A stretch of 64,000 bases of DNA, taken from Candidatus Daviesbacteria bacterium. Its GTDB lineage: Bacteria > Patescibacteriota > Microgenomatia > Daviesbacterales > UBA10151. The notes beneath the pieces were generated by a model. That model was not told where the DNA came from. It ran no database searches and saw only the letters and a list, made by a program, of their open reading frames with translations. This document shows positions 8,769-64,000 of the stretch, piece after piece. The stretch is from the NCBI GenBank assembly GCA_016176335.1, contig JACOXI010000003.1, positions 258,477 to 322,476 of the forward strand, in the 5' to 3' direction. How positions within the stretch are numbered: the stretch's first letter is position 1; each line of letters opens with the position of its first letter. A program made the position numbers and the translations under genes.

Positions 8769-8816
8769 CAATTAATTTTCCACTTGCCAAAATAGGTAAT
8801 TTGTGGTTTAATAATA

Positions 8817-8936
8817 ATGCATCAAGAGTGCCGCCTAAAAGGCGAGCCGGCAACCGAAAAGTTAACGGTGCCAAAGATGATGTGCCCTGCTACATAAGCG
8901 AGGAAAACTTAATCCTCTCTTATGAGAGGTTTTTTT
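8817..8936 (+). promoter_or_regulatory. SAM riboswitch (SAM-I/SAM-IV clan, SAM-IV-like core) with intrinsic terminator, 5' of metK
   Basis: …GCAUCAAGAGUGCCGCC-uaaaa-GGCGAGCCGGCAACC…CGGUGCCaaagAUGAUGUGC… matches the S-box/SAM-IV conserved strings (AUCAAGAG, GAGUGCC, CCGGCAACC, GGUGCC, P1 closing GAUGAUG). A terminator hairpin CCTCTCttatGAGAGG plus T7 follows at 8914–8936. It lies directly upstream of metK. Confidence 0.55.
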
Positions 8937-11156: not shown

Positions 11157-11228
11157 CGGGGATTAGGTCATCGGTAGACCGCTCGGATGGGGTCCGAGAA
11201 GCAGAGAGTTCAATTCTCTCATCCCCGA
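11157..11228 (+). tRNA. tRNA-Pro (anticodon GGG)
   Basis: Hand-folded cloverleaf: acceptor CGGGGAT/ATCCCCG (C1:G72, typical of tRNA-Pro), D-stem GGTC/GACC, anticodon stem CTCGG/CCGAG with loop AT-GGG-GT, T-arm GAGAG-TTCAATT-CTCTC, discriminator A. Confidence 0.8.
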
Positions 11229-42633: not shown

Positions 42634-42704
42634 TGCGGGATGGTGAAATGGTATCACAACTGGCTCTGAACCAGTTATTCTAGGTTCAAATCCTAGTCCC
42701 GCAG
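42634..42704 (+). tRNA. tRNA-Gln (anticodon CTG)
   Basis: Hand-folded: acceptor TGCGGGA/TCCCGCA (U1:A72, typical of bacterial tRNA-Gln), D-stem GTGA/TCAC, anticodon stem ACTGG/CCAGT with loop CT-CTG-AA, T-arm CTAGG-TTCAAAT-CCTAG, discriminator G. A -10 TATAAT lies 7 nt upstream. Confidence 0.8.
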
Positions 42705-48847: not shown

Positions 48848-49075
48848 AAAAAATCCCCTTTCGGGGATACAATAAACACCAATTGGTGTATTTTTCTTTC
48901 TTTCATCCCGACTGTACCCTTCGATACTTCGACTTCGCTCAGTACTCAGGGTTCTTCACTTTGTGAAGAACGGTCGGCTTTGGACTTTCACCAAATCATC
49001 CATATACCGTTTCTGGTATGTGGTCGTGGGCTATACCACCGATTTTGACTTACACAAAACCCCGAAAGAACAGCT
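48848..49075 (-). promoter_or_regulatory. FMN riboswitch (RFN element) with terminator/SD-sequestering expression platform, 5' of the rib operon
   Basis: The minus strand reads …UCUUUCGGGGuuuuGUG.AA.UC…AUCGGUGGUauAGCCCaCGAcc…GGAUgauuugGUGAAAGUCCAAAGCCGACCGU…AAAGU…GAAGGGUACAGUCGGGAUGAAAGAAAG. This matches RFN conserved blocks (CGGGG, ACCGG.GGU, AGCCCGCGA, AAGCCGACAGU.AAAGU, GGAUG.AAGA). It is followed by AUCCCCgaaaGGGGAU plus U6 directly abutting the ribE ATG; the 3' half-stem GGGGA is the likely SD. Confidence 0.7.
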
Positions 49076-49717: not shown

Positions 49718-50359
49718 ATGGTACAAATTATTCCGGCCATACTTTCTACCTCAGAGGATGATTACGCAAGAGATGTCTCGCGTTACCAGAAGTCTTCATT
49801 CTTCCAAGAAGGTTGGGTTCATATTGATTTCATGGACAATATTTTTGTTCCAAATAAAAGTATTGAACCGCCAGTAATAGCTAAACACCCGATTAATTTA
49901 CATAAAGAAGCTCACCCCATGGTCTTACATCCTTTGCAATGGGTTGACAGTTTAGTGAAGGTGGGATTTGAGAGGATAATTTTTCATATAGAGGCAGCAG
50001 ATACTAGTGAATGTATAGAGTATATCAAGAGTCAGGGACTTGAGGTAGGACTGGCTATAAATAATAAGACCCCTATGGAGAAACTAACACCTTTCATTGC
50101 TAAAATAGATGTGGTACTAGTGATGTCTATCATCCCGGGTTTTCAGGGACAACCGTTTATTCATGAGTCTTTGGATAAAATCAGAAAATTAAAATCTAAG
50201 GAATGGAAAGTCCGAATCGGGATAGATGGAGCAGTGAAAGATGATAATATTAGGGAGATTGTTGATGCGGGAGTAGATTTTATCACAGTTGGTTCGTATC
50301 TTCTTAAAGGGGATATTGATGAAAATTTAGAAAAGTTATGGGAGGTAATCAATGAATGA
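49718..50359 (+). CDS. rpe: ribulose-phosphate 3-epimerase-like TIM-barrel enzyme
   Basis: HIDFMDNIFVPN (cf. RPE HVDVMDGHFVPN), …HIEA…, C-terminal …GIDGAV…GVDFITVGS. Confidence 0.75.
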   Translation: MVQIIPAILSTSEDDYARDVSRYQKSSFFQEGWVHIDFMDNIFVPNKSIEPPVIAKHPINLHKEAHPMVLHPLQWVDSLVKVGFERIIFHIEAADTSECIEYIKSQGLEVGLAINNKTPMEKLTPFIAKIDVVLVMSIIPGFQGQPFIHESLDKIRKLKSKEWKVRIGIDGAVKDDNIREIVDAGVDFITVGSYLLKGDIDENLEKLWEVINE

Positions 50360-50984
50360 TAATACTTTAAGAAAAGCTAAAAATATTGAGCAGGTGGCAA
50401 TTTTCGGATCATCGCATGCAGCGCTTGACAGCCAACTGGCAAAAGATACATCTGAAGTTTCCAAAAAATTAGCAGAAGCGGGATATATTGTGGTGGATGG
50501 CGGAGGACCGGGGGTTATGAGAGCGGCAACAGAAGGGGCAAAGTCTGTTGGAGGTAAGGTGATAGGGATAGTGTTGGAAGCAGATGAGCACATGCATTAT
50601 GAGGGAAGGGATCCCGAGAATAAATTTGACATAGAGATTAAGGCAAAAAATTTTGTAGAAAGGACAATCGCGCTGATGCGGGAAGGTCAGGTTTATGTGG
50701 TATTTAATGGTGGGACAGGCACCATATCGGAATTTGGCATGGCGTGGGGGTTAGCCAAATTATACTTTGGTCACCATAAACCGCTTATTTTGTACGGTAA
50801 GTTTTGGGAAAATATTATGAATACATTTAAAGAAAATATGCTGATAACAAACGAGGAGAGAGAGGTATATAAAATTGTAGACTCCCCAGAAGGTGTTTTA
50901 GAAGCAATTATTCAGTTTGAAGAAGAATTGGAAAAAGGGGAGCATAAGTATATTCAAACAACCAGAGGTGATTTCACAAATTAG
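50352..50984 (+). CDS. LOG-family (TIGR00730) Rossmann-fold nucleotide-binding protein
   Basis: GGGPGVMRAATEGA…VIGI and …FNGGTGTISEF… motifs characteristic of LOG/YvdD proteins. Confidence 0.7.
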   Translation: MNDNTLRKAKNIEQVAIFGSSHAALDSQLAKDTSEVSKKLAEAGYIVVDGGGPGVMRAATEGAKSVGGKVIGIVLEADEHMHYEGRDPENKFDIEIKAKNFVERTIALMREGQVYVVFNGGTGTISEFGMAWGLAKLYFGHHKPLILYGKFWENIMNTFKENMLITNEEREVYKIVDSPEGVLEAIIQFEEELEKGEHKYIQTTRGDFTN

Positions 50985-51000
50985 TGATACTATTAAAGTT

Positions 51001-51837
51001 ATGACTTTAACTGATACAGATTATCGTAAGTTGGAGGAGAAAGCCAATTTAATCCGCCAGGATATTATTAAAATGCTTTTGGAGGCAGGTTCCGGCCATT
51101 CTGCCGGACCTTTGGGGATGGCAGATATTTTTGCTGCCTTGTATTTTAATATTTTAAAGCATGATCCTGCTAAGCCGGATTGGGAAGATCGGGATAGGCT
51201 AATTTTATCCAATGGACATATTTGTCCGGTACGTTATGCGGCCATGGCTCATGCCGGTTATTTTCCTATTTCCGAACTTAAAACTTTGAGAAAATTAGGG
51301 AGCAGACTTCAAGGACATCCACACAGAGGTGCACTTCCAGGTATTGAAACAACATCAGGTCCCCTAGGATCCGGATTATCACAAGCAATAGGGTTGGCAT
51401 TGGCAGGCAGAATTGATGGGGCAAAATGGAGAGTAATTTGCCTCATGTCAGATGGAGAGCAGGATGAAGGAAATACCTGGGAAGCAGTAATGCTTGCCAG
51501 TAAATACAAACTACACAATATGACTGCCTTAATGGATCGTAACAATATTCAAATTGACGGGTTTACGGAAGATGTAATGCCGCTGGATTCCTTAAAAAAT
51601 AAATACGAAGCTTTTGGTTGGTATGTTTTAGAGATTGACGGCCATAATATGGAGGAAATAATTGATGCTTTCAGTCAGGCCAAAGCAATTTTTGAAAAAC
51701 CGACTTTAATTATTGCCCACACAATTCCAGGGAAAGGTGTTGATTTTATGGAGAATAAATTTGAATGGCATGGAAAACCACCCAATAAAGAAGAAGCAGA
51801 GCTGGCTTTAAAACAGCTACAGAAATCAGGGGAGTAA
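51001..51837 (+). CDS. transketolase, N-terminal (thiamine-diphosphate-binding) subunit
   Basis: …GSGHSAGPLGMADIFAALYF… and the GDGE/N metal motif (…MSDGEQDEGNTWEA…). The split-gene arrangement is completed by the next ORF. Confidence 0.85.
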   Translation: MTLTDTDYRKLEEKANLIRQDIIKMLLEAGSGHSAGPLGMADIFAALYFNILKHDPAKPDWEDRDRLILSNGHICPVRYAAMAHAGYFPISELKTLRKLGSRLQGHPHRGALPGIETTSGPLGSGLSQAIGLALAGRIDGAKWRVICLMSDGEQDEGNTWEAVMLASKYKLHNMTALMDRNNIQIDGFTEDVMPLDSLKNKYEAFGWYVLEIDGHNMEEIIDAFSQAKAIFEKPTLIIAHTIPGKGVDFMENKFEWHGKPPNKEEAELALKQLQKSGE

Positions 51838-51841
51838 AATT

Positions 51842-52831
51842 ATGATAAATAGAAAAATGAATTTAAACAGTAAACTTTTTGATGATGGTGTAGAGCAAAT
51901 TCCCAGCCGCAATGGTTTTGGAGAAGGGTTAGTTTTGGCAGCAGAAGAGAATGAACAGGTGGTCGGACTGTGTGCAGATCTGACTGAATCTACCAGAATG
52001 CAAGCATTTGCCGAAAAATTCCCGCAAAGATTTATAGAAGTTGGTGTAGCTGAACAAAATTTGGCAACTGTGGCAGCAGGAATGGCTCTTGGAGGGAAGA
52101 TTCCTTTCATCGCATCTTATGCAACTTTCTCCCCAGGTAGAAATTGGGAACAAATCAGAACAACTATTTGCTATAACGATGTGCCAGTTAAAATTATCGG
52201 TTCTCATGCCGGAGTTTCTGTTGGACCGGACGGAGCAACACATCAAGCCTTAGAGGATATAGCTATGATGCGTGTATCACCAAATGTGGTGGTAGTTTCT
52301 CCAGCAGATTCAATTGAAGCTAGAAAAGCCACTTTAGCAATTGCCCGCCTCAATAAACCTTGTTATTTGAGACTCTCCAGAGACAAAGTTCCTGTTATCA
52401 CCACCAATACTACCCCTTTTGAAATAGGAAAAGCAGAGGTTTTCTATGAAGGAAAGGATGCTACGATTGTTGCAACAGGACAGATGGTATATAGAGCCTT
52501 AATGGCAGCAAAAGAGTTGGAATCGAGTAAAATTTCTGTTCGAGTAATAAATTGTCACACGATAAAACCAATAGACCAAGAAACTATTTTAAAAGCTGCA
52601 AAAGAAACAGGGGCAATAGTTAGTGCGGAAGAGCATCAAGTTACAGGAGGATTGGGCGGGGCGGTGGCTGAAGTTTTGTCCCAAAATTACCCTGTACCTT
52701 TACAGATAGTTGGTATTGAGGACAGATTTGGTGAATCAGGTGCACCGAATGAACTTATGGAAAAATTCGGATTGACAAAGAATGCAATTATAAAAGCTAT
52801 AATGCAAGTTTTAAGAATGAAAGGAAAATGA
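51842..52831 (+). CDS. transketolase, C-terminal (pyrimidine-binding + C-terminal domain) subunit
   Basis: …IEVGVAEQNLATVAAGMAL… and …IGSHAGVSVGPDGATHQALEDIA… are transketolase Pyr-domain signatures. Confidence 0.85.
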   Translation: MINRKMNLNSKLFDDGVEQIPSRNGFGEGLVLAAEENEQVVGLCADLTESTRMQAFAEKFPQRFIEVGVAEQNLATVAAGMALGGKIPFIASYATFSPGRNWEQIRTTICYNDVPVKIIGSHAGVSVGPDGATHQALEDIAMMRVSPNVVVVSPADSIEARKATLAIARLNKPCYLRLSRDKVPVITTNTTPFEIGKAEVFYEGKDATIVATGQMVYRALMAAKELESSKISVRVINCHTIKPIDQETILKAAKETGAIVSAEEHQVTGGLGGAVAEVLSQNYPVPLQIVGIEDRFGESGAPNELMEKFGLTKNAIIKAIMQVLRMKGK

Positions 52832-52916: not shown

Positions 52917-53585
52917 TCAGCTTTTTTTTGCCTCAATTAGATTACTTTTGAGTAAGGTTGGTAGGATCATGGTAACAATTCGTACTATTACAACAAAGGC
53001 AGCAAAACCGAAAGTTATCTGGCCAACCACCCTTTTGATTACTAAAACTCCATTGACAGATTCAACTAAATAAAAGTGTAAAACTGCCAAAATTAATGCC
53101 AGATATGCTGTTGACTGGACAATTTTCCAAATCTTAGGGCTTAAAGAATTTAAAGCCAGCTTGTTAGAGGTTAAGGTGACTGCCGAAAGTATTAATAAAG
53201 AAGCCAGACCAGCCAGCAAGCCAAGGTATTTGGGACTGGCCGGGTTAAATAATTTGGCTAGATTGTAATTAACATAGAAAATATAAATTAAAATAGCATG
53301 GGATAGGGCAACAAAAAAGCTCAATATTCCCCAAAATTTCCGGTGGGCTTTTAAAACATCCAAGGTAGGGAAAAACCTGCAGGCAGGGCCAATCAGTAAA
53401 GTTAGGGATAGCAGGGCAACAGACATTAGGCCGGTGGTTTTAACCATTTCTTGAGGGGAAACTTTGCCAAAATTGTAAAACTGAAAATACAGCCAGAAAA
53501 GGATGAGCGGTACCCCAAAATCAATTAATCTTTGGGTTATATTTTTATCTTCAGAGTAATGATAAGGATGGACTTTATTTTTCAT
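52917..53585 (-). CDS. ferric-reductase-like (YedZ/MsrQ-type) haem-binding membrane protein
   Basis: 6-TM protein with spaced His in TM helices (…AHRKFWGILSFFVALSHAIL…, …LILAVLHFYL…). The overlapping +strand ORF 52828–53073 is probably spurious. Confidence 0.4.
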   Translation of the reverse strand: MKNKVHPYHYSEDKNITQRLIDFGVPLILFWLYFQFYNFGKVSPQEMVKTTGLMSVALLSLTLLIGPACRFFPTLDVLKAHRKFWGILSFFVALSHAILIYIFYVNYNLAKLFNPASPKYLGLLAGLASLLILSAVTLTSNKLALNSLSPKIWKIVQSTAYLALILAVLHFYLVESVNGVLVIKRVVGQITFGFAAFVVIVRIVTMILPTLLKSNLIEAKKS

Positions 53586-53664
53586 TGACTAAATGGTGTG
53601 TATTAAAGATTATACCACATGAGATCTTGACATATCCCCTATGGGGGGATATAGTATATGGATT

Positions 53665-53937
53665 ATGTACAGACCTAAAGATACACAGGAAAGAATTCTG
53701 CATAGACTAAGGATCGCCAGGGGGCATCTTGATAAAGTGATCAAGATGATTGAGAATGGGGACTACTGCATTGATATTATCCACCAATCCCAGGCTGTTC
53801 AAAGTGCTCTGCGAGAAGCTGACTCCTTAACTTTAGAAAACCACTTGAAAACCTGTGTGGTTGATCATATTAAAAAGGGCGAGACAGAGACTTCTATCAA
53901 AGAAATAATGTATGTTTTTAAGAAGAATAAGCAATAA
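53665..53937 (+). CDS. csoR: CsoR/RcnR-family metal-sensing transcriptional repressor
   Basis: …ILHRLRIARGHLDKVIKMIENGDYCIDIIHQSQAVQSAL…H…C… is the CsoR W-X-Y-Z fingerprint (Cys/His/Cys) in a 4-helix bundle of about 90 aa. Confidence 0.7.
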   Translation: MYRPKDTQERILHRLRIARGHLDKVIKMIENGDYCIDIIHQSQAVQSALREADSLTLENHLKTCVVDHIKKGETETSIKEIMYVFKKNKQ

Positions 53938-53938
53938 G

Positions 53939-54436
53939 ATGAATGACAAAAAAATTATTATTGGCTTTGTAGTCTTAACGCTCTTAATACTGGGAGGTGG
54001 AGTTTATATTTTAAGTGTTACCACTGCTAATCCTGCTGTGGTTAATCTTGCCCAAAATGCCAAAGTGTCTGTTGATCAAAAAACTCATGATTGGGGAAAT
54101 ATCCCTTATAGCGGAGGTAATGTCAGCAAAACTTTTACTATTAAAAATACAGGAACTGATTCCTTAAAGCTGACTAACATAAAAACTTCATGTGCTTGTA
54201 CTTATGCTCAAGTAATCATCGATGGGAAGACAAGTCCTAATTTTGGTATGCACACCACTTCTTCCTGGGTGGGAGAGGTGGCTCTAGGTAAAGAAGCCAA
54301 CTTAACGGTCGTTTTTGATCCGGCTTTCCATGGTCCGTCAGGTGTGGGAGCTATTGAACGGTTGGTGTCGGTTGAAACAAATGATATTCAAAATCCTAAA
54401 TTAGAATTTTCCTTAAAAGGGGTAGTAGTGAAATAA
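53939..54436 (+). CDS. DUF1573-domain protein (N-terminal TM + beta-sandwich)
   Basis: …HDWGNIPYSGGNVSKTFTIKNTGTDSLKLTNIKTSCACTYAQV… matches the DUF1573 pattern (DFG.I…F.F.N.G…L.I..V..SCGCT). Confidence 0.55.
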   Translation: MNDKKIIIGFVVLTLLILGGGVYILSVTTANPAVVNLAQNAKVSVDQKTHDWGNIPYSGGNVSKTFTIKNTGTDSLKLTNIKTSCACTYAQVIIDGKTSPNFGMHTTSSWVGEVALGKEANLTVVFDPAFHGPSGVGAIERLVSVETNDIQNPKLEFSLKGVVVK

Positions 54437-54449
54437 TTCAAAATTCAAA

Positions 54450-55397
54450 ATGCAAAATTCAAAATTACAATTAAAAATTCAAAAATTTTTATCTAAAGCA
54501 GTGCCGCTTTGGATGGTGCTTTTGATTGTTTTAAATTCCACCCTAATCATGGGTATTATCCAGTACTATTTGATGAAGCAGGAATTGGATAAAAATATCC
54601 GGCAGCTTGCAAAAACCACTCAAACTCCCCAGCAACTGGCGCAAATTTTAAAACAGGAGGTTGTGCCTCAAAAAGGTTATGTGACCTCTTTAAAATGGAA
54701 AGATTTAGGCAAAAGATTAGTGGAGACAGGGGCTATTGATAAGAAAAAATATGAGGAAATCTTTACTCAAAATGTGGATGGAGGGGATCATATGAAATAT
54801 ATGGATGGAAATTGGGAGGAGAATATTGCTATTAACGAGCAAAATGCCCGTTTTATGGTTAATACTTTTTGGGCTTTGGGGTTGGTTAATAAGAGTAAGG
54901 TTTTAGATGAAGGGCCAATGAGGGGAGAGGGTATTGAAACCGGAAACATGGCTTCAACCGCAGGTTGGACTTTGGGTAGTAAACCTGCCATGGAGCTTTA
55001 TTCTTCAAGTCCAACAATTCCTTTAACTGCCGAGCAGCAAGAACTGGTTAAAAAGATTGCCCAAAATGTTTTTCGTCCTTGCTGCGGTAACTCAACTTAT
55101 TTTCCGGACTGCAACCATGGTATGGCTGCCTTAGGATATATTGAGTGGGCAATCTATAATGGATTATCTGAAGACCAAATTTATAAAGATCTTTTAGCCT
55201 TTAATTCTTTCTGGTTTCCGCAAAATTATGTAGAGATGGCAGTTTATTTTGATAAGCAAAATATCAAATGGAAAGATTTAGACCCAAAATTGGCACTCTC
55301 TGCCTCTTATTCTTCGGCGCAAGGTGTGCAGCGTATAAAACAAGCCATACAATCTGTTCCCGGGGTTTCCGGAAGCGGCGGAGGTTGTGGTGTATAA
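54450..55397 (+). CDS. Cys-rich 'CCxNS…DCNHG' family protein, paralog A (metal island)
   Basis: N-terminal TM, then …LTAEQQELVKKIAQNVFRPCCGNSTYFPDCNHGMAALG…AFNSFWFPQNY…GSGGGCGV*. Clear paralog of the C-terminal 300 aa of ORF 59878–61326 (FRPCCNNSTFFQDCNHG…AFNSFWFPQNY…GGAGCGV*). The 5' end is encoded by a heptamer-repeat tract. Confidence 0.5.
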   Translation: MQNSKLQLKIQKFLSKAVPLWMVLLIVLNSTLIMGIIQYYLMKQELDKNIRQLAKTTQTPQQLAQILKQEVVPQKGYVTSLKWKDLGKRLVETGAIDKKKYEEIFTQNVDGGDHMKYMDGNWEENIAINEQNARFMVNTFWALGLVNKSKVLDEGPMRGEGIETGNMASTAGWTLGSKPAMELYSSSPTIPLTAEQQELVKKIAQNVFRPCCGNSTYFPDCNHGMAALGYIEWAIYNGLSEDQIYKDLLAFNSFWFPQNYVEMAVYFDKQNIKWKDLDPKLALSASYSSAQGVQRIKQAIQSVPGVSGSGGGCGV

Positions 55398-56234
55398 ATG
55401 GAAAGTGTATTTTTTCAAACATCACTGGTAGCAGCTTTTGTGGCGGGAATGGTGGCTCTGTTTGCTCCATGTTGTATTACATTTCTTCTTCCGGCATATT
55501 TAGGATCTGTTTTTAAAGAAAAAGAAAAGATAGTTTTAATGACTTTAGTTTTCGGGGCGGGAATTTTTGTAACTTTGATGCCGGCAGTTTTAGGGGTGGC
55601 GCTAATTTCCAAAATGCTTTTTAGATACCATGATGCAATTTATATTACAGGCGGCTTGCTGATGCTTTTTGTGGCAGCAGTTACCTTTTTAGGCTTAAAA
55701 TTACCAATGCCCTCATTACCAAATGCAAAGATTGGCAGGAGAGCAGACATATTATCAATTTTTACTCTGGGTATTTTCTCCGGTATCACATCTGCCTGTT
55801 GCGCACCGGTTTTGATTGGAATTATGACTTTGACTTTTCTTTCTCCCAGCTTTTTCGGAGCGCTTTTGGTGGGTGGGACTTATGTATTGGGGATGGTAGT
55901 ACCGCTTCTTATGATGGCGGTTTTTTTGTCGGACAAGATGCCCAAAATGGTCTTTTTAAGAAGGCCGGTTACCAGCATTAACCTTTTCGGCAGAACTTAT
56001 ATGGTGGCATTGAGTAATCTGATTGCCTCGGTGATATTTTTCGCAACAGGCATCCTGGCTTTGGGGCTGACTTTGACAGGGAAATTGTCTTCTCAAGATA
56101 TGGACATATTCACCAAAACCATAACAGGAGTATTAAATAACGTGAATAATGTTTTTGGCAGCAATATTTTTGTAAATATTTTATTCGTCGTGGTCTTGGC
56201 ATTCCTTATTTATAAAGTTTCGAAAAAGCTTTAG
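55398..56234 (+). CDS. DsbD/CcdA-superfamily-like membrane protein with paired-Cys motifs (MerT-like)
   Basis: 8-TM protein with …FAPCCITFLLPAYLG… in TM1 and …SACCAPVLIG… in a later TM. Start codon abuts the paralog-A stop (translationally coupled). Confidence 0.5.
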   Translation: MESVFFQTSLVAAFVAGMVALFAPCCITFLLPAYLGSVFKEKEKIVLMTLVFGAGIFVTLMPAVLGVALISKMLFRYHDAIYITGGLLMLFVAAVTFLGLKLPMPSLPNAKIGRRADILSIFTLGIFSGITSACCAPVLIGIMTLTFLSPSFFGALLVGGTYVLGMVVPLLMMAVFLSDKMPKMVFLRRPVTSINLFGRTYMVALSNLIASVIFFATGILALGLTLTGKLSSQDMDIFTKTITGVLNNVNNVFGSNIFVNILFVVVLAFLIYKVSKKL

Positions 56235-56259
56235 ACTGGATTTAAGGAGGTGATTTTAA

Positions 56260-56397
56260 ATGATGGGTTATGGAAATTGGGGGTATGGCATGATGAGTTC
56301 CGGATTTGGAGTTTTGGCAACCGTTTTCTGGTTGGTTATTTTCATTGACCTTATTCTTATAGGTATTTGGCTTTGGAAACAGATTCAAAAGAAGTAA
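56260..56397 (+). CDS. small membrane protein (45 aa; missed by the ORF track)
   Basis: RBS AAGGAGGTGA 9 nt upstream. Product MMGYGNWGYGMMSSGFGVLATVFWLVIFIDLILIGIWLWKQIQKK. Confidence 0.4.
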   Translation: MMGYGNWGYGMMSSGFGVLATVFWLVIFIDLILIGIWLWKQIQKK

Positions 56398-56401
56398 GGA
56401 G

Positions 56402-56674
56402 GTGAGAAAAATGTTAAATGCAAAAGCTTTTGCCAATGCGGCATCAGCCGTGATGGGAATTTGGGTGGTAGTTTGTGCATTAGTTTCATATATTGCACCG
56501 GACCTTTTGTTTACTATAGCCCAATCCTGGATGCATACCATTAATTTGGAGGTAGCCAAAACTACTTTCAGTCCGAATTTGGGATTATTACTTTTGGGGC
56601 TGGTAAGCGCAACAGGTCTAACCTGGATAACAACCTATGGCACCATCAGTTTATACAATAAGTGGGTAAGATGA
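56402..56674 (+). CDS. small 2-TM membrane protein
   Basis: RBS AAGGAGGTGAG 8 nt upstream; 90 aa hydrophobic. The ORF ends overlapping the copB start. Confidence 0.4.
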   Translation: MRKMLNAKAFANAASAVMGIWVVVCALVSYIAPDLLFTIAQSWMHTINLEVAKTTFSPNLGLLLLGLVSATGLTWITTYGTISLYNKWVR

Positions 56675-58905
56675 TTGAAAAAAATATGTATATTTGTCCA
56701 ATGCATCCTGATGTTATATCCGAAAGAGCAGGTAAATGTCCCAAGTGTGGTGGCATGGATTTAGTGGAGAAGAAAGAGGAACATGGTATAAGTCACGATA
56801 TGCACGAAGTTGATCAGCCCCAAAGAGCCGGTATGTATTACAGCTGTCCTATGGATCCGGAGGTGATTTCCAAAAAGCCTGGTAATTGTCCCAAATGCGG
56901 CATGGAGCTTATGCCAATAACAAAAGAACATGGGGGTTTGGATCATGCAAATATGGAAGAGGGTTTCAAGCGAAGATTTTTTGTCACCTTACCTCTGGTA
57001 TTTATTATTGTAGTGCTTGCCCCAAAGATTCAGGAATGGTTCAGGTTTAGCCTCACATTCCCGGGAATGGAAATTGTGACCTTTGCCTTAACCTCGGTAA
57101 TAGTTTTCTACTCTGGTTTGCCTTTTTATCAGATGGCCCTTGGTGAAATTAAAGCCAAAAAGTACGGCATGATGACTTTGGTTTCATTGGCTGTTTTATC
57201 AGGGTATTTTTTCTCTGTTGCCGCAACTTTCCTTTTTCCGGGAGAAAATCTTTACTGGGAAATTGCCACATTGGTTTTGGCATTTTTGCTGGGTCACTGG
57301 ATAGAAATGAGAGCTGTTCGGGGCGCAACAGGGGCACTGGCTGAATTGGCCAGACTTATTCCTCCCACGGCCCATAAGATAGTGATAAGTGGCAAGAGAA
57401 AAGTAATTAGTGATGTGGGAACAGGACAATTAAAAAAGGGCGATCTGATTCTGGTTCGTCCAGGAGAAAAAATGCCCATTGATGGGGTGGTTTGGGAAGG
57501 AGAATCTGCTGTAAATGAGTCAATGGTGACAGGAGAGTCTGTTCCTGTAGAAAAGAAAAAAGGGTCAGAAGTGATAGGCGGGACGATCAACAGTGACGGT
57601 TCTCTGACAGTTAAGGTCACAAAAACCGGGGAGGAAACAGCCATCTCCCAGATGATGGAGCTGATTCGGCAGGCACAAGAGAGTAAACCTGATGTACAAA
57701 AAATGGCTGATCAAGCAGCCAGCTGGTTAACATTTACTGCCCTGACAGTAGGTATAGGCACCTTTTTGTTTTGGTTTTTTGGATCAAACCAGGGGGCTAT
57801 TTTTGCCGGAACTTTGGCGATTTCCGTAATTGTTATTGCCTGTCCTCATGCTCTGGGTCTGGCTATCCCGACTGTCACCACTATCACTACGGCTTTGGCT
57901 GCCAAAAACGGAATTTTAATCAAAGACATGAGGGCTTTGGAGATTGCCAGAAAACTTAACTGGGTGGTTTTGGATAAAACAGGAACGTTAACAGAGGGGA
58001 AATTTGGAGTGTCTGATGTGGCAACATTTGGGAAAATATCGTCTGTGGAGATTATTAACTTGGCAACTGCTTTGGAGTTTCATTCTCAACATCCGATTGC
58101 CCAGGGTATTGTGGAGGAGGCCAAAAAAAGGAGAATGAATATACAACCTGCCAAAAATTTTAAATCTATTCCCGGCAAAGGAGCAGAAGGTTTGGTAGAT
58201 GGAAAAAAAGTGGTAGTGGGGAATCAGGCACTGATGGAAGATTTAAGAATTAAGAATATAGAATCAAGAATTAAGGGATTTAAACAGGAAGGGAAAACTT
58301 TTATTTTTGTGGCCATAAATAACAGATTAGTTGGGGCAATTGGGCTGGAAGATGTCATAAGGCCACAGTCAAAAGAAGCAATAGATGCTTTTAGGGAAAT
58401 GGGCATTAAAACAGCCATGCTGACCGGTGATCATGAAACTGTTGCAAAAATGGTGGCTGAAAGATTGGGTATAGATACTTTTTTTGCCCAGGTTCTACCC
58501 GGGGATAAGGTTAGCAAAATCAAGCAGTTGCAAGAAGGGGGCAATGTGGTGGCGATGGTGGGGGATGGGATTAATGATGCGGCCTCTTTAACCCAGGCTC
58601 ATATTGGTATTGCCATTGGGGCAGGCACGGGAGTGGCCATTGAGTCTGCAGAAATAGTGCTGATGAAAAATGACCCCAGGGATGTAGTTAAAGCTATAAA
58701 ACTTTCTCAAAAAACCAACATTAAGATGGTGCAAAATCTTGCTTGGGCAGCAGGTTACAATATCATTACCATCCCCATGGCAGCCGGTATTTTTTATAAC
58801 CTGGGAATTCTGCTGCGCCCTGAATGGGCAGCGCTTTTGATGAGTGCCTCATCTGTGATCGTGGTTTTCAATGCCTTGCTTTTAAAAAAGGAACGTCTTG
58901 ACTGA
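56662..58905 (+). CDS. copB: P1B-type heavy-metal-translocating ATPase, CPH subtype (CopB-like) with two N-terminal Cys4 metal-binding mini-domains
   Basis: Two repeats YICPMHPDVISERAGKCPKCGGMDL / YYSCPMDPEVISKKPGNCPKCGMEL. TM6 motif CPH (…IACPHALGLAIP…), DKTGTLT, GDGINDAA, HP. 747 aa. Confidence 0.9.
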   Translation: MGKMIEKNMYICPMHPDVISERAGKCPKCGGMDLVEKKEEHGISHDMHEVDQPQRAGMYYSCPMDPEVISKKPGNCPKCGMELMPITKEHGGLDHANMEEGFKRRFFVTLPLVFIIVVLAPKIQEWFRFSLTFPGMEIVTFALTSVIVFYSGLPFYQMALGEIKAKKYGMMTLVSLAVLSGYFFSVAATFLFPGENLYWEIATLVLAFLLGHWIEMRAVRGATGALAELARLIPPTAHKIVISGKRKVISDVGTGQLKKGDLILVRPGEKMPIDGVVWEGESAVNESMVTGESVPVEKKKGSEVIGGTINSDGSLTVKVTKTGEETAISQMMELIRQAQESKPDVQKMADQAASWLTFTALTVGIGTFLFWFFGSNQGAIFAGTLAISVIVIACPHALGLAIPTVTTITTALAAKNGILIKDMRALEIARKLNWVVLDKTGTLTEGKFGVSDVATFGKISSVEIINLATALEFHSQHPIAQGIVEEAKKRRMNIQPAKNFKSIPGKGAEGLVDGKKVVVGNQALMEDLRIKNIESRIKGFKQEGKTFIFVAINNRLVGAIGLEDVIRPQSKEAIDAFREMGIKTAMLTGDHETVAKMVAERLGIDTFFAQVLPGDKVSKIKQLQEGGNVVAMVGDGINDAASLTQAHIGIAIGAGTGVAIESAEIVLMKNDPRDVVKAIKLSQKTNIKMVQNLAWAAGYNIITIPMAAGIFYNLGILLRPEWAALLMSASSVIVVFNALLLKKERLD

Positions 58906-58950
58906 AGATCATTGACAAAAGTAAAATAAATTCCTATCATTTGTATAGAT

Positions 58951-59274
58951 ATGCAAATGAAGAAAAAAGAAACTCTCCAAAATGAACTTCAAGATAACGC
59001 CAAAATTGAGGCGTGTGCTGAAAAATTTGGCACTACAGGCGACCGAACCCGAATGAGGATTTGCTACCTTCTTTGTCACCATCCAGAGTTAACAGTTTCT
59101 GAAATAGCTGAAATTATTAGTTCTCCAATCTCGACTGTGTCTCACAGCCTAAAGAAGCTAAAAGAAATACAGGTAGTTGACCACCGAAGACAAGCAAAGC
59201 AAGTTTTATATTCTTTAAGTAAAAACAAATTTGTTTCAGTCATTAAAAGTCAATTATTAGGAAACAATGAATAA
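58951..59274 (+). CDS. ArsR/SmtB-family metalloregulator
   Basis: wHTH …RMRICYLLCHHPELTVSEIAEIISSPISTVSHSLKKLKEIQVVDHRRQAKQVLYSL… with Cys/His in the alpha3 region. Confidence 0.7.
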   Translation: MQMKKKETLQNELQDNAKIEACAEKFGTTGDRTRMRICYLLCHHPELTVSEIAEIISSPISTVSHSLKKLKEIQVVDHRRQAKQVLYSLSKNKFVSVIKSQLLGNNE

Positions 59275-59875
59275 AAAGATACTTGTATTAGCACTAATTA
59301 TAACGGCCTTTGTTGCAGGTTATTTTTATTTTTTCTCATCCAAGCCGCTATTTAATTTTTCTCCCAAGGAGTTTCAACAGGAAACAAAAGGGTTGGTTAA
59401 CGAAGCATTAGCTGTAAAATTTGATTACCTTTCCAAGAATGGTAATTCTTCTTGTTCGGGAGCATTCCGAGACTCTATCGCTTCAATGCCAGACAATGCT
59501 CGTTTACAAGGTTCTTGCTGCAGCCCCATGAGTATGCACCGCTACAGCGAGCAAGTTGAAGGGCTAAAAAAGTATCAACAAATCTTGGAAATCCCTCCTG
59601 ATCCTTATGATATTGAGGCAAAGCTGGCTAAAAAGTTAATGGCAGATTATGACAATATTCAGTTAACTGCAGAAGAACAGAAAGCTTACGATTTTGCCAT
59701 GCAAAATTCTGATGAGAAAGGCCCTTGTTGCTGTAAGTGCTGGAGATGGAATGTTTACGGAGGATTAGGAAAGTATTTGATTAAGAATTACAAATTTACT
59801 GGACAGCAGGTTACCCAAGTGTGGAATTTATCTGATGGATGCGGTGGTGATAATGACCATCATCACAGTTCATAA
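59267..59875 (+). CDS. secreted Cys/His-rich putative metal-binding protein
   Basis: N-terminal TM/signal; clusters …GNSSCSGAF…, …GSCCSPMSMH…, …GPCCCKCWRW…, C-terminal …DGCGGDNDHHHSS*. Confidence 0.45.
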   Translation: MNKKILVLALIITAFVAGYFYFFSSKPLFNFSPKEFQQETKGLVNEALAVKFDYLSKNGNSSCSGAFRDSIASMPDNARLQGSCCSPMSMHRYSEQVEGLKKYQQILEIPPDPYDIEAKLAKKLMADYDNIQLTAEEQKAYDFAMQNSDEKGPCCCKCWRWNVYGGLGKYLIKNYKFTGQQVTQVWNLSDGCGGDNDHHHSS

Positions 59876-59877
59876 GT

Positions 59878-61326
59878 ATGAAGAAACGAGCAATTAAAAA
59901 ACTTAAAACTAAATTTCTTACAGCAGCGTTCTATGGCTCCATCGGCTTAACAGCCTCACTTGCTCTATTTCTTGTCTTTTATTGGAGTTTGAGCCTAAAT
60001 TCAAGTATTTACAGCCTTATCAACAATACGAAAGGCGAACCTATTTATCTTTGGGTCTATGTGTTTCTTACTTTCGGCACCATTTTCTTGTTTGGTGTTA
60101 ACGCTGTACTTTTTGTTTATCGGTGGAGGAAGTTCGGGCCTCCTAGACTTAAAGGTCAAGGCGGAAGCGGTTTGGGAGCTTTGGTAGGAGTGGCGGCTTC
60201 AGCTTGTCCGGTCTGCGGTTCTGTTCTTTTATCTGCCATTGGTATTGCCGGAGGATTGGCAGTTTTCCCGCTTCAAGGTTTGGAACTGAAAGCGCTCTCT
60301 TTTGGACTAATGGCGCTCCCTGTTTGGTTAACAACCAGAGAGTTAAAATCTTTAAGTTGCGGTGATGAAACTTGCCCGACTCCTCGTCCTACTTGGTTTC
60401 AGGCAAAAGACAAGCCTTATCTTATAGCCTCTTTAGCATTAGTTACTGTTTTGATACTTATTGGCTGGAATATGCTCAAATCAGACCCGATAGTTTATGG
60501 TTTTTTCAATAAACCAGAGGCAACAAAGGTTTCTTCAACAATCAATCCATTGTATGACGAAGTAGTGGCTAAAGTTTTGCCCTCCCAAGGTTTTCAAAGC
60601 AAAATTTTCTTAGGAGATAGCTTCTTAAAATTGGTACAAAATGGTGTTATTGACCAGAGTAAGTTTGAAGCAATTTATCAAGAACGCGGAGGATTGTCAG
60701 CCCAGTTTAAAGAAGTCTTAAGTGAGCCTTCATACAAACCAATTCTTCTCACCCGCGAAAATGCCAACATCTACGTCAATCTTCTCTGGGCATTAGGACT
60801 TTCCAACTATATGTCAACAAATAAAGATAGCCCTGTTAACGGCAAATCTCTTTTTAACTTTGCTTCAACTGGAGGCTGGAATATAGGGAAGGAAGAAAAT
60901 GGGGGAGCGTACTTCAATAAATTCAGAATAGTTAGGCTGACACCCGAGCAAGAGGCTCTAGTCACTCAAATTGCCAAAGCAACCTTCCGTCCCTGTTGCA
61001 ATAACTCTACCTTTTTCCAAGATTGTAACCATGGTTCTGCTCTTTTAGGGCTTCTCCAACTCGGAGCTTCACAAGGACTCACTGAAGATGAGTTGTACAA
61101 AGAGGCTCTCGCTTTCAATTCCTTTTGGTTCCCGCAAAATTATATTCAAACAGCCTTATATTTTAAGGTAGTTAAAAACACAGATTGGGACAAAGTTGAC
61201 CCAAAAGTAGCGTTGGGAGCTAATTACTCAACTGGCAATGGATGGAGCAAGAATGTGCAAACAGAGATTGCTAAAATACCAAACCTTATCCCCCAAACAA
61301 ACGGTGGAGCAGGATGTGGGGTATAA
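59878..61326 (+). CDS. fusion of a 4-TM CxxC membrane domain with a Cys-rich 'CCxNS…DCNHG' domain, paralog B
   Basis: N-terminal 180 aa with TM helices and …ASACPVCGSVLLSA…. The C-terminal 300 aa is paralogous to ORF 54450–55397. Confidence 0.5.
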   Translation: MKKRAIKKLKTKFLTAAFYGSIGLTASLALFLVFYWSLSLNSSIYSLINNTKGEPIYLWVYVFLTFGTIFLFGVNAVLFVYRWRKFGPPRLKGQGGSGLGALVGVAASACPVCGSVLLSAIGIAGGLAVFPLQGLELKALSFGLMALPVWLTTRELKSLSCGDETCPTPRPTWFQAKDKPYLIASLALVTVLILIGWNMLKSDPIVYGFFNKPEATKVSSTINPLYDEVVAKVLPSQGFQSKIFLGDSFLKLVQNGVIDQSKFEAIYQERGGLSAQFKEVLSEPSYKPILLTRENANIYVNLLWALGLSNYMSTNKDSPVNGKSLFNFASTGGWNIGKEENGGAYFNKFRIVRLTPEQEALVTQIAKATFRPCCNNSTFFQDCNHGSALLGLLQLGASQGLTEDELYKEALAFNSFWFPQNYIQTALYFKVVKNTDWDKVDPKVALGANYSTGNGWSKNVQTEIAKIPNLIPQTNGGAGCGV

Positions 61327-61372
61327 ATACTAAAGGAGGTGATAAATTATGTGTCCAGATTGCAACTAGATT

Positions 61373-62809
61373 ATGAGTGCAAATATGTTTGATTTAATTA
61401 TTATTGGTGGTGGAGCAGGCGCTTTTGCTGCTGCCATTAAGGCTAATGAACTCGGAGCAAAAACTTTATTAGTTAACAAAGGACTGCCTCTTGGTGGGAC
61501 CTGTGTTAATGTTGGTTGTGTTCCATCTAAAACTCTCCTTTGGGCCGGCGAGGTGATGCATCTTGCCAGAAACCACAAGATTCCGGGAATAGATATAGAG
61601 GTTAAAAGGTTTGATTTTGCCCAAATTGTCCAACACGAGCTTGATTTAGTAGAAAAGTTAAGAGCTGAAAAATATGAAAAAATTTTAAATGGTTTAGAGA
61701 GTGTTACTTATCTAGAAGGACAAGCGACTTTTGTTTCTCCTTATGAGATCGAAGTTAATCCTTCGACAGAGCTCAGGACAGGTGGTCAAAAGTATCAGGC
61801 TAAGAAATTCATTATCGCTGCTGGATCAACTGCAACAGTACCACCAATTGATGGGATTAAGGAAGTAGGATACTTAACTCACATTGAGGCTCTACAGATT
61901 AAACAGCAACCAAAGAAACTAATCGTAGTAGGTGCTGGTCCTTTAGGACTGGAGTTTGCCCAAATGTTTGCCAGGTTTGGTACTAAAGTAACAATATTAC
62001 ATAGAGGACAATCCATTTTCCGTGGTGAAGAAGAATTAACAACTAGACTTGCTGAAATACTCACTGAAGAAGGAATAACTATTAAAACTAATGTCCAAAT
62101 AAAAAGTGTCAGAAAAGATGGAGAGAAAAAGGTTTTAGTATACAAAGAAGCAGACTTGTCCGCCGAAGCCTTGGTAAAGGCGGATGAAATACTACTAGCT
62201 GCAGGTAAAACTCCCAATACCCAAGGAATGGGTCTTGATAAAGCTGAAGTTGGGATGGATGAGAAACAAACGATTAAAGTCAACTCCTACTTTCAAACTT
62301 CTCAATCGCATATTTATGCTATAGGTGATGTGACGGATAGCCCGCTAAGACTTGAGCCAACTGCAGGGAGGGAGGGTACACTAGCTTCAGAAAACGCCTT
62401 AAATAATGCCAAAAATAACATTGACTATAATACTGTGCCCTGGACTATCTTCACTGATCCGCAACTTGCAGGAGTAGGACTTACAGAAGAGCAGGAGATG
62501 GAGCAAATAGGAAGATGTTTATGTCGGACTGTTTCTTTTGCCAACGTACCTAAAGCCATAATAATGAATCGTACGGAAGGTTTAATCAAGATGGTTGTCC
62601 ACCCGGATACAAAAGTGATCCTGGGCGTTCATATACTGGCTCCAAATGCAGGAGAGTTAATTGCTCAAGCAATGGTACTTGTCAAGAACAAAAATACCAT
62701 TGATGATGTTATCAATTCTTTACCAATGTTTCCAACTCTTTCAGAAAGTATAAAAACCGTTGCGTTGTCTTTTACTAGAGATATAAGTAAACTAAGTTGT
62801 TGTATATAA
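61373..62809 (+). CDS. merA: mercuric reductase-like flavoprotein disulfide oxidoreductase (no N-terminal HMA domain)
   Basis: FAD motif IIGGGAGAFAAA, redox-active GGTCVNVGCVPSK, NAD motif and a C-terminal vicinal Cys pair …KLSCCI* (MerA ends …KQLSCCAG). Confidence 0.7.
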   Translation: MSANMFDLIIIGGGAGAFAAAIKANELGAKTLLVNKGLPLGGTCVNVGCVPSKTLLWAGEVMHLARNHKIPGIDIEVKRFDFAQIVQHELDLVEKLRAEKYEKILNGLESVTYLEGQATFVSPYEIEVNPSTELRTGGQKYQAKKFIIAAGSTATVPPIDGIKEVGYLTHIEALQIKQQPKKLIVVGAGPLGLEFAQMFARFGTKVTILHRGQSIFRGEEELTTRLAEILTEEGITIKTNVQIKSVRKDGEKKVLVYKEADLSAEALVKADEILLAAGKTPNTQGMGLDKAEVGMDEKQTIKVNSYFQTSQSHIYAIGDVTDSPLRLEPTAGREGTLASENALNNAKNNIDYNTVPWTIFTDPQLAGVGLTEEQEMEQIGRCLCRTVSFANVPKAIIMNRTEGLIKMVVHPDTKVILGVHILAPNAGELIAQAMVLVKNKNTIDDVINSLPMFPTLSESIKTVALSFTRDISKLSCCI

Positions 62810-62810
62810 A

Positions 62811-63848
62811 ATGGATCTTTGGTTAATTTTCCTGACCGGTTTAACTGTAGGGGGGTTGACCTGTATGGTAGTACAGGGGGGGCTTTTGGCCGGGGTTTTG
62901 GCGGCAAAAGAAGAAGAGGATTTTACAGAAGGCAGTCAAAGAAAACACAACGTACTACCGGTTTTGGCATTTTTGATAGCTAAACTTATTGCGTATGTAA
63001 CTTTAGGTTTTATACTGGGTACTTTTGGTTCAACGCTGGCCATTTCCGATAATACCCGGATTGTCATGCAACTTATTGCAGGGGCGTATATGATAGCCAT
63101 AGCTTTGGATCTTTTGAATGTTCACCCGATTTTTAGATATGTTGTGATCCAGCCTCCTAAATTTTTAACCAGAATGATTAAGGATACCTCGAAAAGCCGC
63201 GATTTATTTGCCCCGGCAATTTTAGGATTTTTGACTGTTTTTATCCCCTGCGGTACTACTTTGGCCATGGAAGTTTTTGCCATATCTTCCGGCAGCGCAA
63301 TTTGGGGGGCTTTGATTATGGGTACATTTACTTTGGGAACCTCACCTTTGTTTTTGGGATTGGGGTTTATTACAACTGTGTTGGGTGATACTTTCAGGAC
63401 GCGATTTTTCAAGTTGGCCGGGGTTTTGGTTGCGTACCTTGGGATCACTACCTTCAATGGAGCGCTGGTTTTGGCTGGATCGCCAATTACTTTGCAAACA
63501 ATCAGAGATATGATCCCCATTCAAATTGATCTTTCCGGTGGAGCGCAGGCAGCTTCAGATTCTAATGTGCAAGTTTTGGCAGGAGTACAAACTGCAAACA
63601 TTTTGGTTTACCCGACAGGTTATAGCCCAAACTACATACAGATTAGATCAGGAATTCCCGTGAGGTTTAATTTGGCTACAACCGGGGGTTTTGGTTGTAC
63701 ATCCCAGTTTCGGATTCCCCAACTTGGGCTTAGCAAAAATTTAACTCAAAATAGTATAACTTCTGTAGAGTTTACGCCGCAGACTAAAGGTAAGATTGTC
63801 TGGACTTGCTCAATGGGTATGTATTCGGGAATAATGAAGGTGATATGA
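62811..63848 (+). CDS. DsbD_2-like 6-TM domain fused to a C-terminal cupredoxin-like Cys/Met domain
   Basis: TM1 …GGLTCMVVQGG… and TM4 …VFIPCGTTLAM…, each with a single Cys. C-terminal 100 aa …GGFGCTSQF…VWTCSMGMYSGIMKV* resembles cupredoxin/TRASH-like metal sites. Confidence 0.45.
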   Translation: MDLWLIFLTGLTVGGLTCMVVQGGLLAGVLAAKEEEDFTEGSQRKHNVLPVLAFLIAKLIAYVTLGFILGTFGSTLAISDNTRIVMQLIAGAYMIAIALDLLNVHPIFRYVVIQPPKFLTRMIKDTSKSRDLFAPAILGFLTVFIPCGTTLAMEVFAISSGSAIWGALIMGTFTLGTSPLFLGLGFITTVLGDTFRTRFFKLAGVLVAYLGITTFNGALVLAGSPITLQTIRDMIPIQIDLSGGAQAASDSNVQVLAGVQTANILVYPTGYSPNYIQIRSGIPVRFNLATTGGFGCTSQFRIPQLGLSKNLTQNSITSVEFTPQTKGKIVWTCSMGMYSGIMKVI

Positions 63849-63915
63849 GCGAAGCGAGTATCATCCCTTCGGGTCTGAGCCTCAGGGTCGAAGACCTGAG
63901 CGTAGTCGAAGGATC
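63849..63915. repeat. GC-rich nested-palindrome repeat (intergenic GC-repeat family)
   Basis: GAGCGAAGCGAGTATCATCCCTTCGGGTCTGAGCCTCAGGGTCGAAGACCTGAGCGTAGTCGAAGGATC. Its core TCAGGGTC-n-CCTGAGC-RTWGTCGAAGGAT is shared with 38203–38255; the words are shared with 42705–42815. Confidence 0.5.
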
Positions 63916-63921
63916 TATTTG

Positions 63922-64000
63922 ATGGTTAAGAAGAAATTAAAAATTCAGGATATACACTGTTCGTCTTGTTCTCTGGTAATTGATATGGATTTGGAGGATT
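63922..64000 (+). CDS. heavy-metal-associated (HMA) domain protein, 5' fragment (runs off the window)
   Basis: MVKKKLKIQDIHCSSCSLVIDMDLED… contains the M.C..C HMA fold start. Confidence 0.5.
   Translation, partial: MVKKKLKIQDIHCSSCSLVIDMDLED

Follow-up and report, generated by a model that had tools for sequence, protein, structure and literature searches.

The last ten kilobases of the analysed window, 64,000 nt of Candidatus Daviesbacteria bacterium DNA (assembly GCA_016176335.1, contig JACOXI010000003.1, positions 258,477 to 322,476), encode a copper/mercury resistance operon with a proposed thiol pathway of the envelope, a system of known kind that contains a new protein family. The unnamed families identified in it are a Cys4His domain (carried by two paralogs, here called A and B), a secreted protein with nine Cys, and a variant of CcdA with Cys-Cys doublets. 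All open reading frames (ORFs) that a first-pass annotation, made from the sequence alone, had named between positions 53641 and 64000 were found on the + strand, and its reading of the region as a copper/mercury-type metal gene cluster was supported. The region is not the single ten-kb island of that annotation; it holds two nested transcription units. The outer one is a copper operon under CsoR control, conserved in Microgenomates and related Candidate Phyla Radiation (CPR) bacteria. The inner unit (58906-62810), which has its own promoter and operator, is a mobile ArsR-controlled cassette that encodes ArsR, a 202-aa protein with nine Cys, B and the mercuric reductase MerA. The features of both units are the following.

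53627..53655, + strand: promoter-like site (TTGACA, 17 nt spacer, TATAGT) and CsoR-type operator
53641..53937, + strand: CsoR-family Cu(I)-sensing repressor (PF02583, 82.8 bits)
53912..54436, + strand: DUF1573 Ig-like protein, membrane-anchored, with C94-x-C96 (PF07610; OS_HP2 (seleno)protein domain)
54450..55397, + strand: paralog A, 315 aa, N-terminal membrane anchor and predicted extracytoplasmic domain
55398..56234, + strand: divergent CcdA/DsbD-family protein, 278 aa, with Cys-Cys doublets; its start abuts the stop of A
56260..56397, + strand: 45-aa Met/Gly-rich protein with a single transmembrane segment (ORF; homologues in 15 of 80 loci)
56402..56674, + strand: DUF5676 protein with two transmembrane segments (PF18926, 51.2 bits)
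56662..58905, + strand: CPH-type P1B copper ATPase with two N-terminal HMBD domains (TIGR01525, TIGR01511, PF19335 twice)
58912..58960, + strand: cassette promoter (TTGACA, 17 nt spacer, TATCAT) and presumed ArsR operator
58951..59274, + strand: ArsR/SmtB metalloregulator (NF033788, 64.4 bits against a cutoff of 55; PF01022)
59267..59875, + strand: secreted or anchored 202-aa protein of an unnamed family, nine invariant Cys, HHH tail
59878..61326, + strand: paralog B, 482 aa, five-helix membrane domain and predicted extracytoplasmic domain
61373..62809, + strand: mercuric reductase MerA, catalytic core only, ending in LSCCI (TIGR02053)
62811..63848, + strand: fusion of DsbD_2 (PF13386, 114 bits) and a cupredoxin-like domain (PF13473, Cupredoxin_1, 36.5 bits)
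63922..64000, + strand: start of a CopZ-like HMA protein (IHCSSC), cut by the end of the window

The outer unit encodes, in this order, CsoR, the DUF1573 protein, A, the CcdA-like protein, the small membrane proteins, the P1B ATPase, the DsbD_2-cupredoxin fusion and the HMA protein. Other Daviesbacteria carry this operon without the four cassette genes (CsoR, DUF1573, A, 278-aa protein, DUF5676, small genes, P1B ATPase, DsbD_2-cupredoxin, HMA), and there the ATPase gene abuts the DsbD_2-cupredoxin gene; in the window, the genes for ArsR, the 202-aa protein, B and MerA occupy exactly this junction. The four-gene unit was also found in a very different neighbourhood (L168/L169 among the related loci), and the L168 proteins were 85% (B) and 74% (MerA) identical to those of the window, with the L168 MerA passing TIGR02053. 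The region was read as nested because the cassette-free operon exists and the cassette recurs in a different context. Shorter versions of the cassette were observed as well: ArsR, 202-aa protein and B without MerA next to a serine recombinase (L087), and ArsR and MerA without the 202-aa protein and B at the same operon site (L011). The arsR promoter overlaps an 11-2-11 inverted repeat (TCATTTGTATA/TATGCAAATGA). In four other genomic contexts, promoter and repeat showed no change whereas the sequence just upstream of them diverged, and this position is therefore taken as the left edge of the mobile cassette.

A survey of GTDB with one genome per species gave 532 stretches that encode a relative of the A/B family. 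The best 80 of these 532 were examined, and all belonged to CPR bacteria or to unclassified metagenome-assembled genomes (MAGs) with CPR-like synteny. Synteny was counted in the 48 GTDB loci whose flanks reached 6 kb or more on both sides, for genes within 6 kb of the family gene. DUF1573 was present in all 48 loci and a CcdA-like gene in 46, which upholds the earlier view that the domain is tied to Cys-bearing membrane modules. CsoR was found in 41 loci, the P1B ATPase in 39, DUF5676 in 32 and the DsbD_2-cupredoxin fusion in 27.

Proteins A and B (NCBI HYS96_01895 and HYS96_01925, each 100% identical) are paralogs, as had been claimed, with 35% identity over ~315 aa (E 3e-55), which is far beyond chance; no third copy of the domain was found in the window. 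The key residues of A are C211 C212 ... D220 C221 N222 H223 and a tail that ends in GGGC313GV-COOH. C211, C212, C221 and H223 were kept in 167 of 167 aligned homologues and the tail C313 in 126 of 126, and the consensus of the Gly-rich C-terminal tail was GGxCG[VAT]-COOH. In A, B, the DUF1573 protein and the CcdA-like protein, all Cys residues belong to conserved motifs. Both paralogs start with a Lys-rich N-terminus that is followed by a membrane helix or helices, and for this reason the Cys-rich domain is predicted to lie outside the cytoplasm; A carries a membrane anchor and is not the soluble protein that it had been taken for.

The Cys-rich domain could be placed in no named family by comparison with Pfam-A, NCBIfam, PDB sequences or PDB folds, and the statement of the first-pass annotation that it could not be named withstood profile searches against well-characterised families. 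A, the 278-aa protein, the 202-aa protein and B matched nothing in Pfam or NCBIfam, not even at E<=10. The homologues, 4524 of A type and at least 1200 of B type, were all 'hypothetical' and without a Pfam domain. When 1.84 billion cluster representatives were searched exhaustively with a profile, 652 clusters at 50% identity were obtained. Family members were also present on contigs with 60-70% GC, and look-ups of the clusters for ten divergent members returned no informative name. A profile search of PDB sequences with the domain gave nothing. When the AlphaFold2 (AF2) models of A and B (predicted local distance difference test, pLDDT, 86.6 and 85.5) were compared with the PDB by Foldseek, the best match of A was CcmH (E 1.1), the best match of B had an E value of 0.18 and a template modelling (TM) score below 0.2, and none was significant. 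Literature searches found no description of the domain or of the triad of DUF1573, A and CcdA-like protein. A 66%-GC locus from outside the CPR encodes a signal-peptide version of the domain together with CopA, CsoR, a canonical CcdA, a TlpA-like redoxin, DUF1573 and DUF411; the copper/thiol-redox association is therefore no peculiarity of the CPR.

The 278-aa protein encoded next to A has the paired Cys that were noted before, as the doublets C25 C26 and C134 C135, which were kept in 98 of 99 homologues; the eight transmembrane helices assigned to it gave way to ~7 hydrophobic segments. A profile of 36 homologues matched Thermus CcdA (5VKV) with an E value of 1.1e-17 over residues 7-189. PF02683 matched 8 of the 36 homologues, more divergent ones, and not the window protein itself. 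The motifs APC25C...LP and SAC134CAP aligned with SPCV and TPCIGP of 5VKV, which hold the two essential CcdA cysteines, so that each repeat has, in a Pro-containing transmembrane motif, one Cys that corresponds to an essential Cys of CcdA and an extra Cys adjacent to it. Because the profile matches 5VKV, both Cys motifs align and eight members match PF02683, the protein is assigned, by homology, as a divergent CcdA. Its assignment to DsbD_2 (PF13386) was rejected (hhalign E 0.17, not significant).

In the first-pass annotation, the occurrence of the domain once beside a separate membrane partner (A) and once fused (B) had been taken as a Rosetta-stone hint that it works with a thiol or metal-translocating membrane module. 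The membrane domain of B had no BLAST similarity to the membrane protein beside A, and hhalign gave only a P value of 7e-4 with a probability of 26%. Furthermore, B-type fusions of other lineages were also found directly after DUF1573 and a CcdA-like gene (L120, L122, L090). As the fusions stand beside a CcdA-like gene and BLAST similarity is missing, the Rosetta-stone argument is not supported, and the fused domain is an additional module and not the fused partner. The hhalign alignment placed ASACPVCG of B on TSACCAP of the CcdA-like profile, which was kept as a lead and not as a finding.

The Cys and His residues of B are the membrane motif CPVC110-113, a loop motif C161-x4-C166, and C373 C374, C383, H385 and C480 in the outer domain. 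The AF2 model of B has five helices in the membrane domain, where four had been proposed, and shows a helix break at C110-P111. Among 120 B-type proteins, CxxCG was present in 120, a second Cys pair in the following loop in 101 and the C-terminal Cys in 119. An N-terminal Cys-rich extension (YQCEECGF...CEAWC..H.SCN) was found in 46 of the 120 and is not present in the B of the window; many Parcubacteria B-type proteins (including P0141, P0148, P0163 and P0223) have this presumably cytoplasmic extension. The membrane module also occurs by itself, encoded in L020 by a 185-aa gene that neighbours a DsbA-like gene and a gene homologous to that of the 202-aa protein. The 202-aa protein, with 2129 homologues, has C63, CC84-85, CCC154-156, C158 and C192, as well as H91 and the C-terminal HHH. 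Its gene often, not always, precedes a B-type gene, and the two adjoin in L001, L087, L088, L097 and L168. A relation of the 202-aa protein to the A domain was considered and rejected, with only a 34-column local match (LTxEQQ...PCC, P 7e-4). The ArsR encoded at the head of the cassette is rich in Cys and His in the helix-3 region (C22, C37, C42, H43, H44).

The MerA of the cassette scored 521.5 bits with TIGR02053 (equivalog cutoff 454.45) and 380.6 with lipoamide dehydrogenase TIGR01350, which is under the cutoff of 408.8. Its best PDB matches were Metallosphaera sedula MerA (4ywo, 1e-96), 5x1y and Tn501 MerA (1zk7), with lipoamide dehydrogenase at 2e-75. The redox Cys pair GGTCVNVGCVPSK and the C-terminal ...KLSCCI are present, a Tyr equivalent to Tyr264 aligns with the Tyr of 1zk7 and 5x1y (EVGYLTH), and position 605 is a Phe (MFPTL), as in the archaeal 4ywo. 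The protein thus has all four features by which MerA sequences were included in a published analysis, namely the redox Cys pair, the C-terminal vicinal Cys pair, Tyr264 and Tyr/Phe605 (PMC8261052). In that analysis, Christakis et al. rooted the MerA phylogeny with dihydrolipoamide dehydrogenases and recovered Daviesbacteria MerA in a CPR clade that is sister to the MerA of Thermococci/Archaeoglobi (PMC8261052). Judged by these signatures, the protein is a bona fide mercuric reductase of the published CPR clade, and it does not cluster with lipoamide/dihydrolipoamide dehydrogenases. The suggestion that it may act on another substrate was not supported, given the passed equivalog cutoff, the mercuric reductases as best PDB matches, the four signatures and the published clade; no result pointed to a substrate other than mercury. 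As the first-pass annotation had remarked, NmerA and MerR/MerT/MerP are missing. The optional HMA domain NmerA was not found (the alignment with 5x1y begins at residue 83 and there was no HMA match), and it is also missing from the characterised M. sedula MerA (4ywo, 462 aa). Pfam and NCBIfam family searches, in which B and the 202-aa protein remained without a match at E<=10, revealed no MerT or MerP, and the regulator is of the ArsR type.

Both units have a promoter-like site at their start. The best sigma-70-like sites in 53400-64000 were two sites with 11 of 12 matches each, directly upstream of csoR and arsR; as the number of promoter-like sites overall was not above that of shuffled sequence, only these two were counted as promoter evidence. 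The csoR operator, ATATCCCC-TATGG-GGGGATAT at 53632-53652, lies between -35 and -10 and is a perfect 8-nt inverted repeat, and a box of the C4-N-G4 type was present upstream of csoR in 34 of 62 related loci. CsoR has the PF02583 fold and the C-H-C ligand set, C43/H68/C72 with spacings of 25 and 4, the same as C36/H61/C65 of Mycobacterium tuberculosis CsoR. ATG 53665 is likelier to be its true start than ATG 53641, since the latter is inside the operator and a start at 53665 gives 90 aa, the length of the L003 orthologue. In the DUF1573 protein, both Cys of the CxC motif were kept in 108 of 108 aligned homologues. DUF1573 homologues with selenocysteine (UGC motif) exist (PMC9312934; compare NCBIfam OS_HP2), and redox chemistry is therefore favoured for this protein. 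No in-frame TGA for selenocysteine was found at conserved Cys positions in 160 loci.

The P1B ATPase passed both cutoffs (TIGR01525 with 602 bits and TIGR01511 with 586 bits) and has the membrane CPx motif (VIACPHALG) and DKTGT, which makes it a P1B copper ATPase. In the DsbD_2 fusion, where for a second time in this operon a membrane domain of the DsbD superfamily is paired with a copper domain based on Cys, the cupredoxin part contains C296 ... C333-S-M-G-M. A stand-alone cupredoxin in L020 (11834-12193) has C-G-M-N-M, and we take the Cys...CxMxM pattern of these cupredoxins to resemble the Cu(I) site of the pneumococcal chaperone CupA. The partial HMA ORF shared 69% identity with the PF00403 protein that L003 encodes at this operon position. 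The GC-rich spacer of 73 nt before it (63849-63921) had no unusual structure (z -0.48) and no repeat in the window. The tiny Met/Gly-rich protein (MMGYGNWGYGMM...) resembles the membrane part of longer Met/Gly-rich proteins with a SHOCT domain (L087 12756-13442, L120 15538-16245, L168 8106-8714), and these recur near the ArsR cassette and copper operons, often by a TrmO_N-like gene. In L020 (14609-18226), from another Daviesbacteria-like genome, a different gene set separates the ATPase gene from the DsbD_2-cupredoxin gene: a BlaI/CopY-like and BlaR1-like pair (recognised by eye only), a DsbA-like thioredoxin protein (Rcas_1661 match), a stand-alone CxxC protein with four transmembrane segments, a homologue of the 202-aa protein and an unnamed 164-aa protein. 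The site between these two genes seems to be an insertion hot spot for accessory cassettes.

Upstream of the operon, a divergent gene adjoins the csoR promoter and encodes a membrane protein of the Ferric_reduct type (MsrQ/YedZ-like; 52917-53585, - strand, PF01794, 38.3 bits), for which no MsrP-like partner was seen. A transketolase is encoded at 50917-52831 by two adjoining genes, one for the N-terminal and one for the C-terminal half, and a LOG-family gene lies upstream (50352-50984), as in the neighbourhood of L003. The shared L003-type neighbourhood suggests that the position of the copper operon on the Daviesbacteria chromosome is conserved. Rfam detected no RNA family in the metal region; elsewhere in the window it detected an FMN riboswitch (48891-49073, -), tRNAs (11157-11228, +, and 42634-42704, +) and, barely above the gathering score, a SAM-I/IV riboswitch (8814-8920, +). 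Operons of the Daviesbacteria type at 70-84% identity and with CPR-like GC were found in L007, L009, L013, L015, L016 and others. The title 'uncultured Gammaproteobacteria bacterium' of such entries (binchicken MAGs, L007 and others) is probably a placeholder or a wrong taxonomy.

In our view, the most likely mechanism is a thiol relay, induced by copper, that leads from the cytoplasm to Cys proteins of the outer surface, and we give this reading about an even chance of being correct. The membrane topology, the direction of flow and the relayed cargo (electrons or metal ions) that we infer would be as follows. Cytoplasmic Cu(I) would release CsoR from its operator, so that the outer operon is expressed and supplies the copper-exporting P1B ATPase, the DsbD_2-cupredoxin/HMA pair and the triad of DUF1573, A and CcdA-like protein. 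The CcdA-like protein would carry the reducing power of cytoplasmic thioredoxin across the membrane by thiol-disulfide exchange and deliver it to the DUF1573 protein (CxC) and to protein A, both membrane-anchored at the outer surface. Protein A would contribute a CC...DCxH centre and a flexible Gly-rich tail that ends in Cys. The two recipients may keep surface thiols reduced and/or hold Cu(I) thiolates during copper export. B could act as a single-chain relay, in which a Cx4C loop in the cytoplasm and a CPxC within the membrane are joined to the same outer domain, under the control of a thiophilic ArsR sensor, and the inner cassette would provide a defence against thiophilic metals, here specifically mercury. 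Copper-induced reductive pathways of the DsbD type are established, for Scs (PMC10907172, PMC3322552) and for dsbDEG (10.1101/2020.08.17.255257). A redox relay is favoured because of the homology to CcdA, the selenoproteins among DUF1573 homologues, the redox genes of the non-CPR locus and the finding that all Cys are motif residues.

Several points weigh against a redox relay. A thioredoxin-fold partner, the usual client of CcdA, is not encoded in the window, and protein A resembles no known oxidoreductase to a detectable degree, the match to CcmH being not significant. Vicinal Cys-Cys doublets are present in both halves of the CcdA-like protein, in A and in the 202-aa protein, and such doublets typify thiolate ligands of Hg/Cu (in MerT and MerF, for example) more than they do redox disulfides. 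In the 202-aa protein, the His-rich tail suggests metal binding.

The main alternative, possible though tentative, is that the metal ion itself is the cargo. The Cys4His domain, the 202-aa protein and the DUF1573 protein would bind extracellular Cu(I)/Hg(II) as thiolates, in a direct relay or buffer, and the CC-doublet CcdA-like protein and the CPxC/Cx4C of B would hand the metal across the membrane from one thiol to the next. In this reading, B together with the 202-aa protein would be a functional analogue of MerT and MerP and feed the NmerA-less MerA. Vicinal Cys pairs occur throughout the components, and B combines a membrane Cys pair with a Cys pair in a cytoplasmic loop, which is also the layout of MerT. 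The Cys-rich extension of 46 of the 120 B-type proteins, the recurrence of the MerA-bearing four-gene cassette, the MerA without NmerA and with MerT and MerP not found, the His tail of the 202-aa protein and the DUF411/CopG of the non-CPR locus are consistent with it as well. However, ArsR-202-aa-B and 202-aa-B units are commoner without MerA (L087, L001, L088, L097), and an importer is therefore unlikely, as the import of a toxic metal without a reductase would be harmful. In addition, copper import during CsoR derepression makes little sense, thiol-disulfide exchange is the sole activity shown for CcdA proteins, and there was no sequence match to MerT, MerP or HMA. In its full form, an unrecognised thiolate relay that conveys Cu(I) or Hg(II), and not electrons alone, through the CPR cell membrane would be made up of the CC-doublet CcdA, repurposed as a metal conduit, the A/B domain and the 202-aa protein, with B and the 202-aa protein in place of MerT/MerP/NmerA in CPR mercury cassettes; we regard this form as rather unlikely.

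An enzyme or receptor of the outer surface with a non-metal substrate, for instance in envelope maintenance, that stands in a metal operon through stress co-regulation only, is improbable. The invariant polar and aromatic motifs outside the Cys (ASTGGW, NxxWxLGL, FNSFWFP) and the very strong conservation among CPR phyla (62-85% in B-type proteins) are typical of enzymes. Against this stand the synteny with CsoR, P1B ATPase, DUF1573 and CcdA across the CPR and in the 66%-GC non-CPR locus, and the fact that Cys and His are the most strictly invariant positions. Least probable of all is that the MerA homologue is no mercury enzyme and, as an NAD(P)H-driven reductase, recharges the cytoplasmic Cys pair of B through its C-terminal Cys-Cys tail, in the way that high-Mr thioredoxin reductases reduce protein disulfides via a C-terminal redox tail: it adjoins B in two contexts (the window and L168) and MerT, MerP and NmerA are absent, but it passed the MerA equivalog cutoff with all four signatures, belongs to the published MerA clade (PMC8261052), stands with ArsR and without B at the same operon site in L011, and B is mostly found without it.

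The proposed copper-induced thiol relay shares with the Scs/DsbD/CcdA systems the induction by copper and, as proposed here, a membrane protein of the DsbD superfamily that reduces Cys proteins outside the cytoplasm; the Ig-like DUF1573 with its Cys pair also recalls the Ig-like N-terminal domain of DsbD. It differs from them in its putative clients, the Cys4His domain and DUF1573 in place of thioredoxin-fold proteins, in having Cys-Cys doublets where Scs/DsbD have single Cys, in the regulation by CsoR and in the CPR host. The mer operon (MerR-MerT-MerP-MerA) likewise combines a repressor that senses metal and has an operator of its own, a Cys protein outside the cytoplasm, a membrane protein that bears one Cys pair in the membrane and one in a cytoplasmic loop, and a bona fide MerA, to which the MerA of the cassette corresponds by its signatures. 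Unlike the mer operon, the cassette has an ArsR-type regulator and a MerA without NmerA, its resemblance to MerT/MerP is one of architecture only, with no sequence relation, and the ArsR-202-aa-B unit usually comes without MerA. The Gram-positive CsoR-CopZ-CopA system has in common with the outer operon the C-H-C site of CsoR, an operator with a G/C-tract inverted repeat within the promoter, an ATPase of the P1B type and an HMA chaperone. The triad of DUF1573, A and CcdA-like protein, DUF5676, the tiny Met/Gly-rich protein and the DsbD_2-cupredoxin fusion are additional here, and the ATPase is CPH-type with HMBD, in contrast to CPC-type with HMA. The best Foldseek match of the A model was the N-terminal three-helix domain of CcmH (2KW0), over 63 columns with a target TM score of 0.60; both have a helix before an R-x-C-x-x-C-like motif, and both systems have a CcdA/DsbD partner. 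With the E value of 1.1 at a probability of 0.75, an hhalign P value of 0.074 and ~a quarter of the domain covered, the relation to CcmH is unproven.

CPR bacteria make up a large share of bacterial diversity and their envelope chemistry is almost unstudied. The Cys4His, 9-Cys and CC-doublet CcdA families are among the most constant companions of copper efflux in the CPR and occur outside it as well. They are small and based on soluble domains with clear operators, and are therefore directly testable. If the proposed relay is true, it could explain how CPR MerA is supplied with substrate without MerT, MerP and NmerA, and the copper-thiol redox link of the Scs/DsbD systems would extend to clients without a thioredoxin fold.

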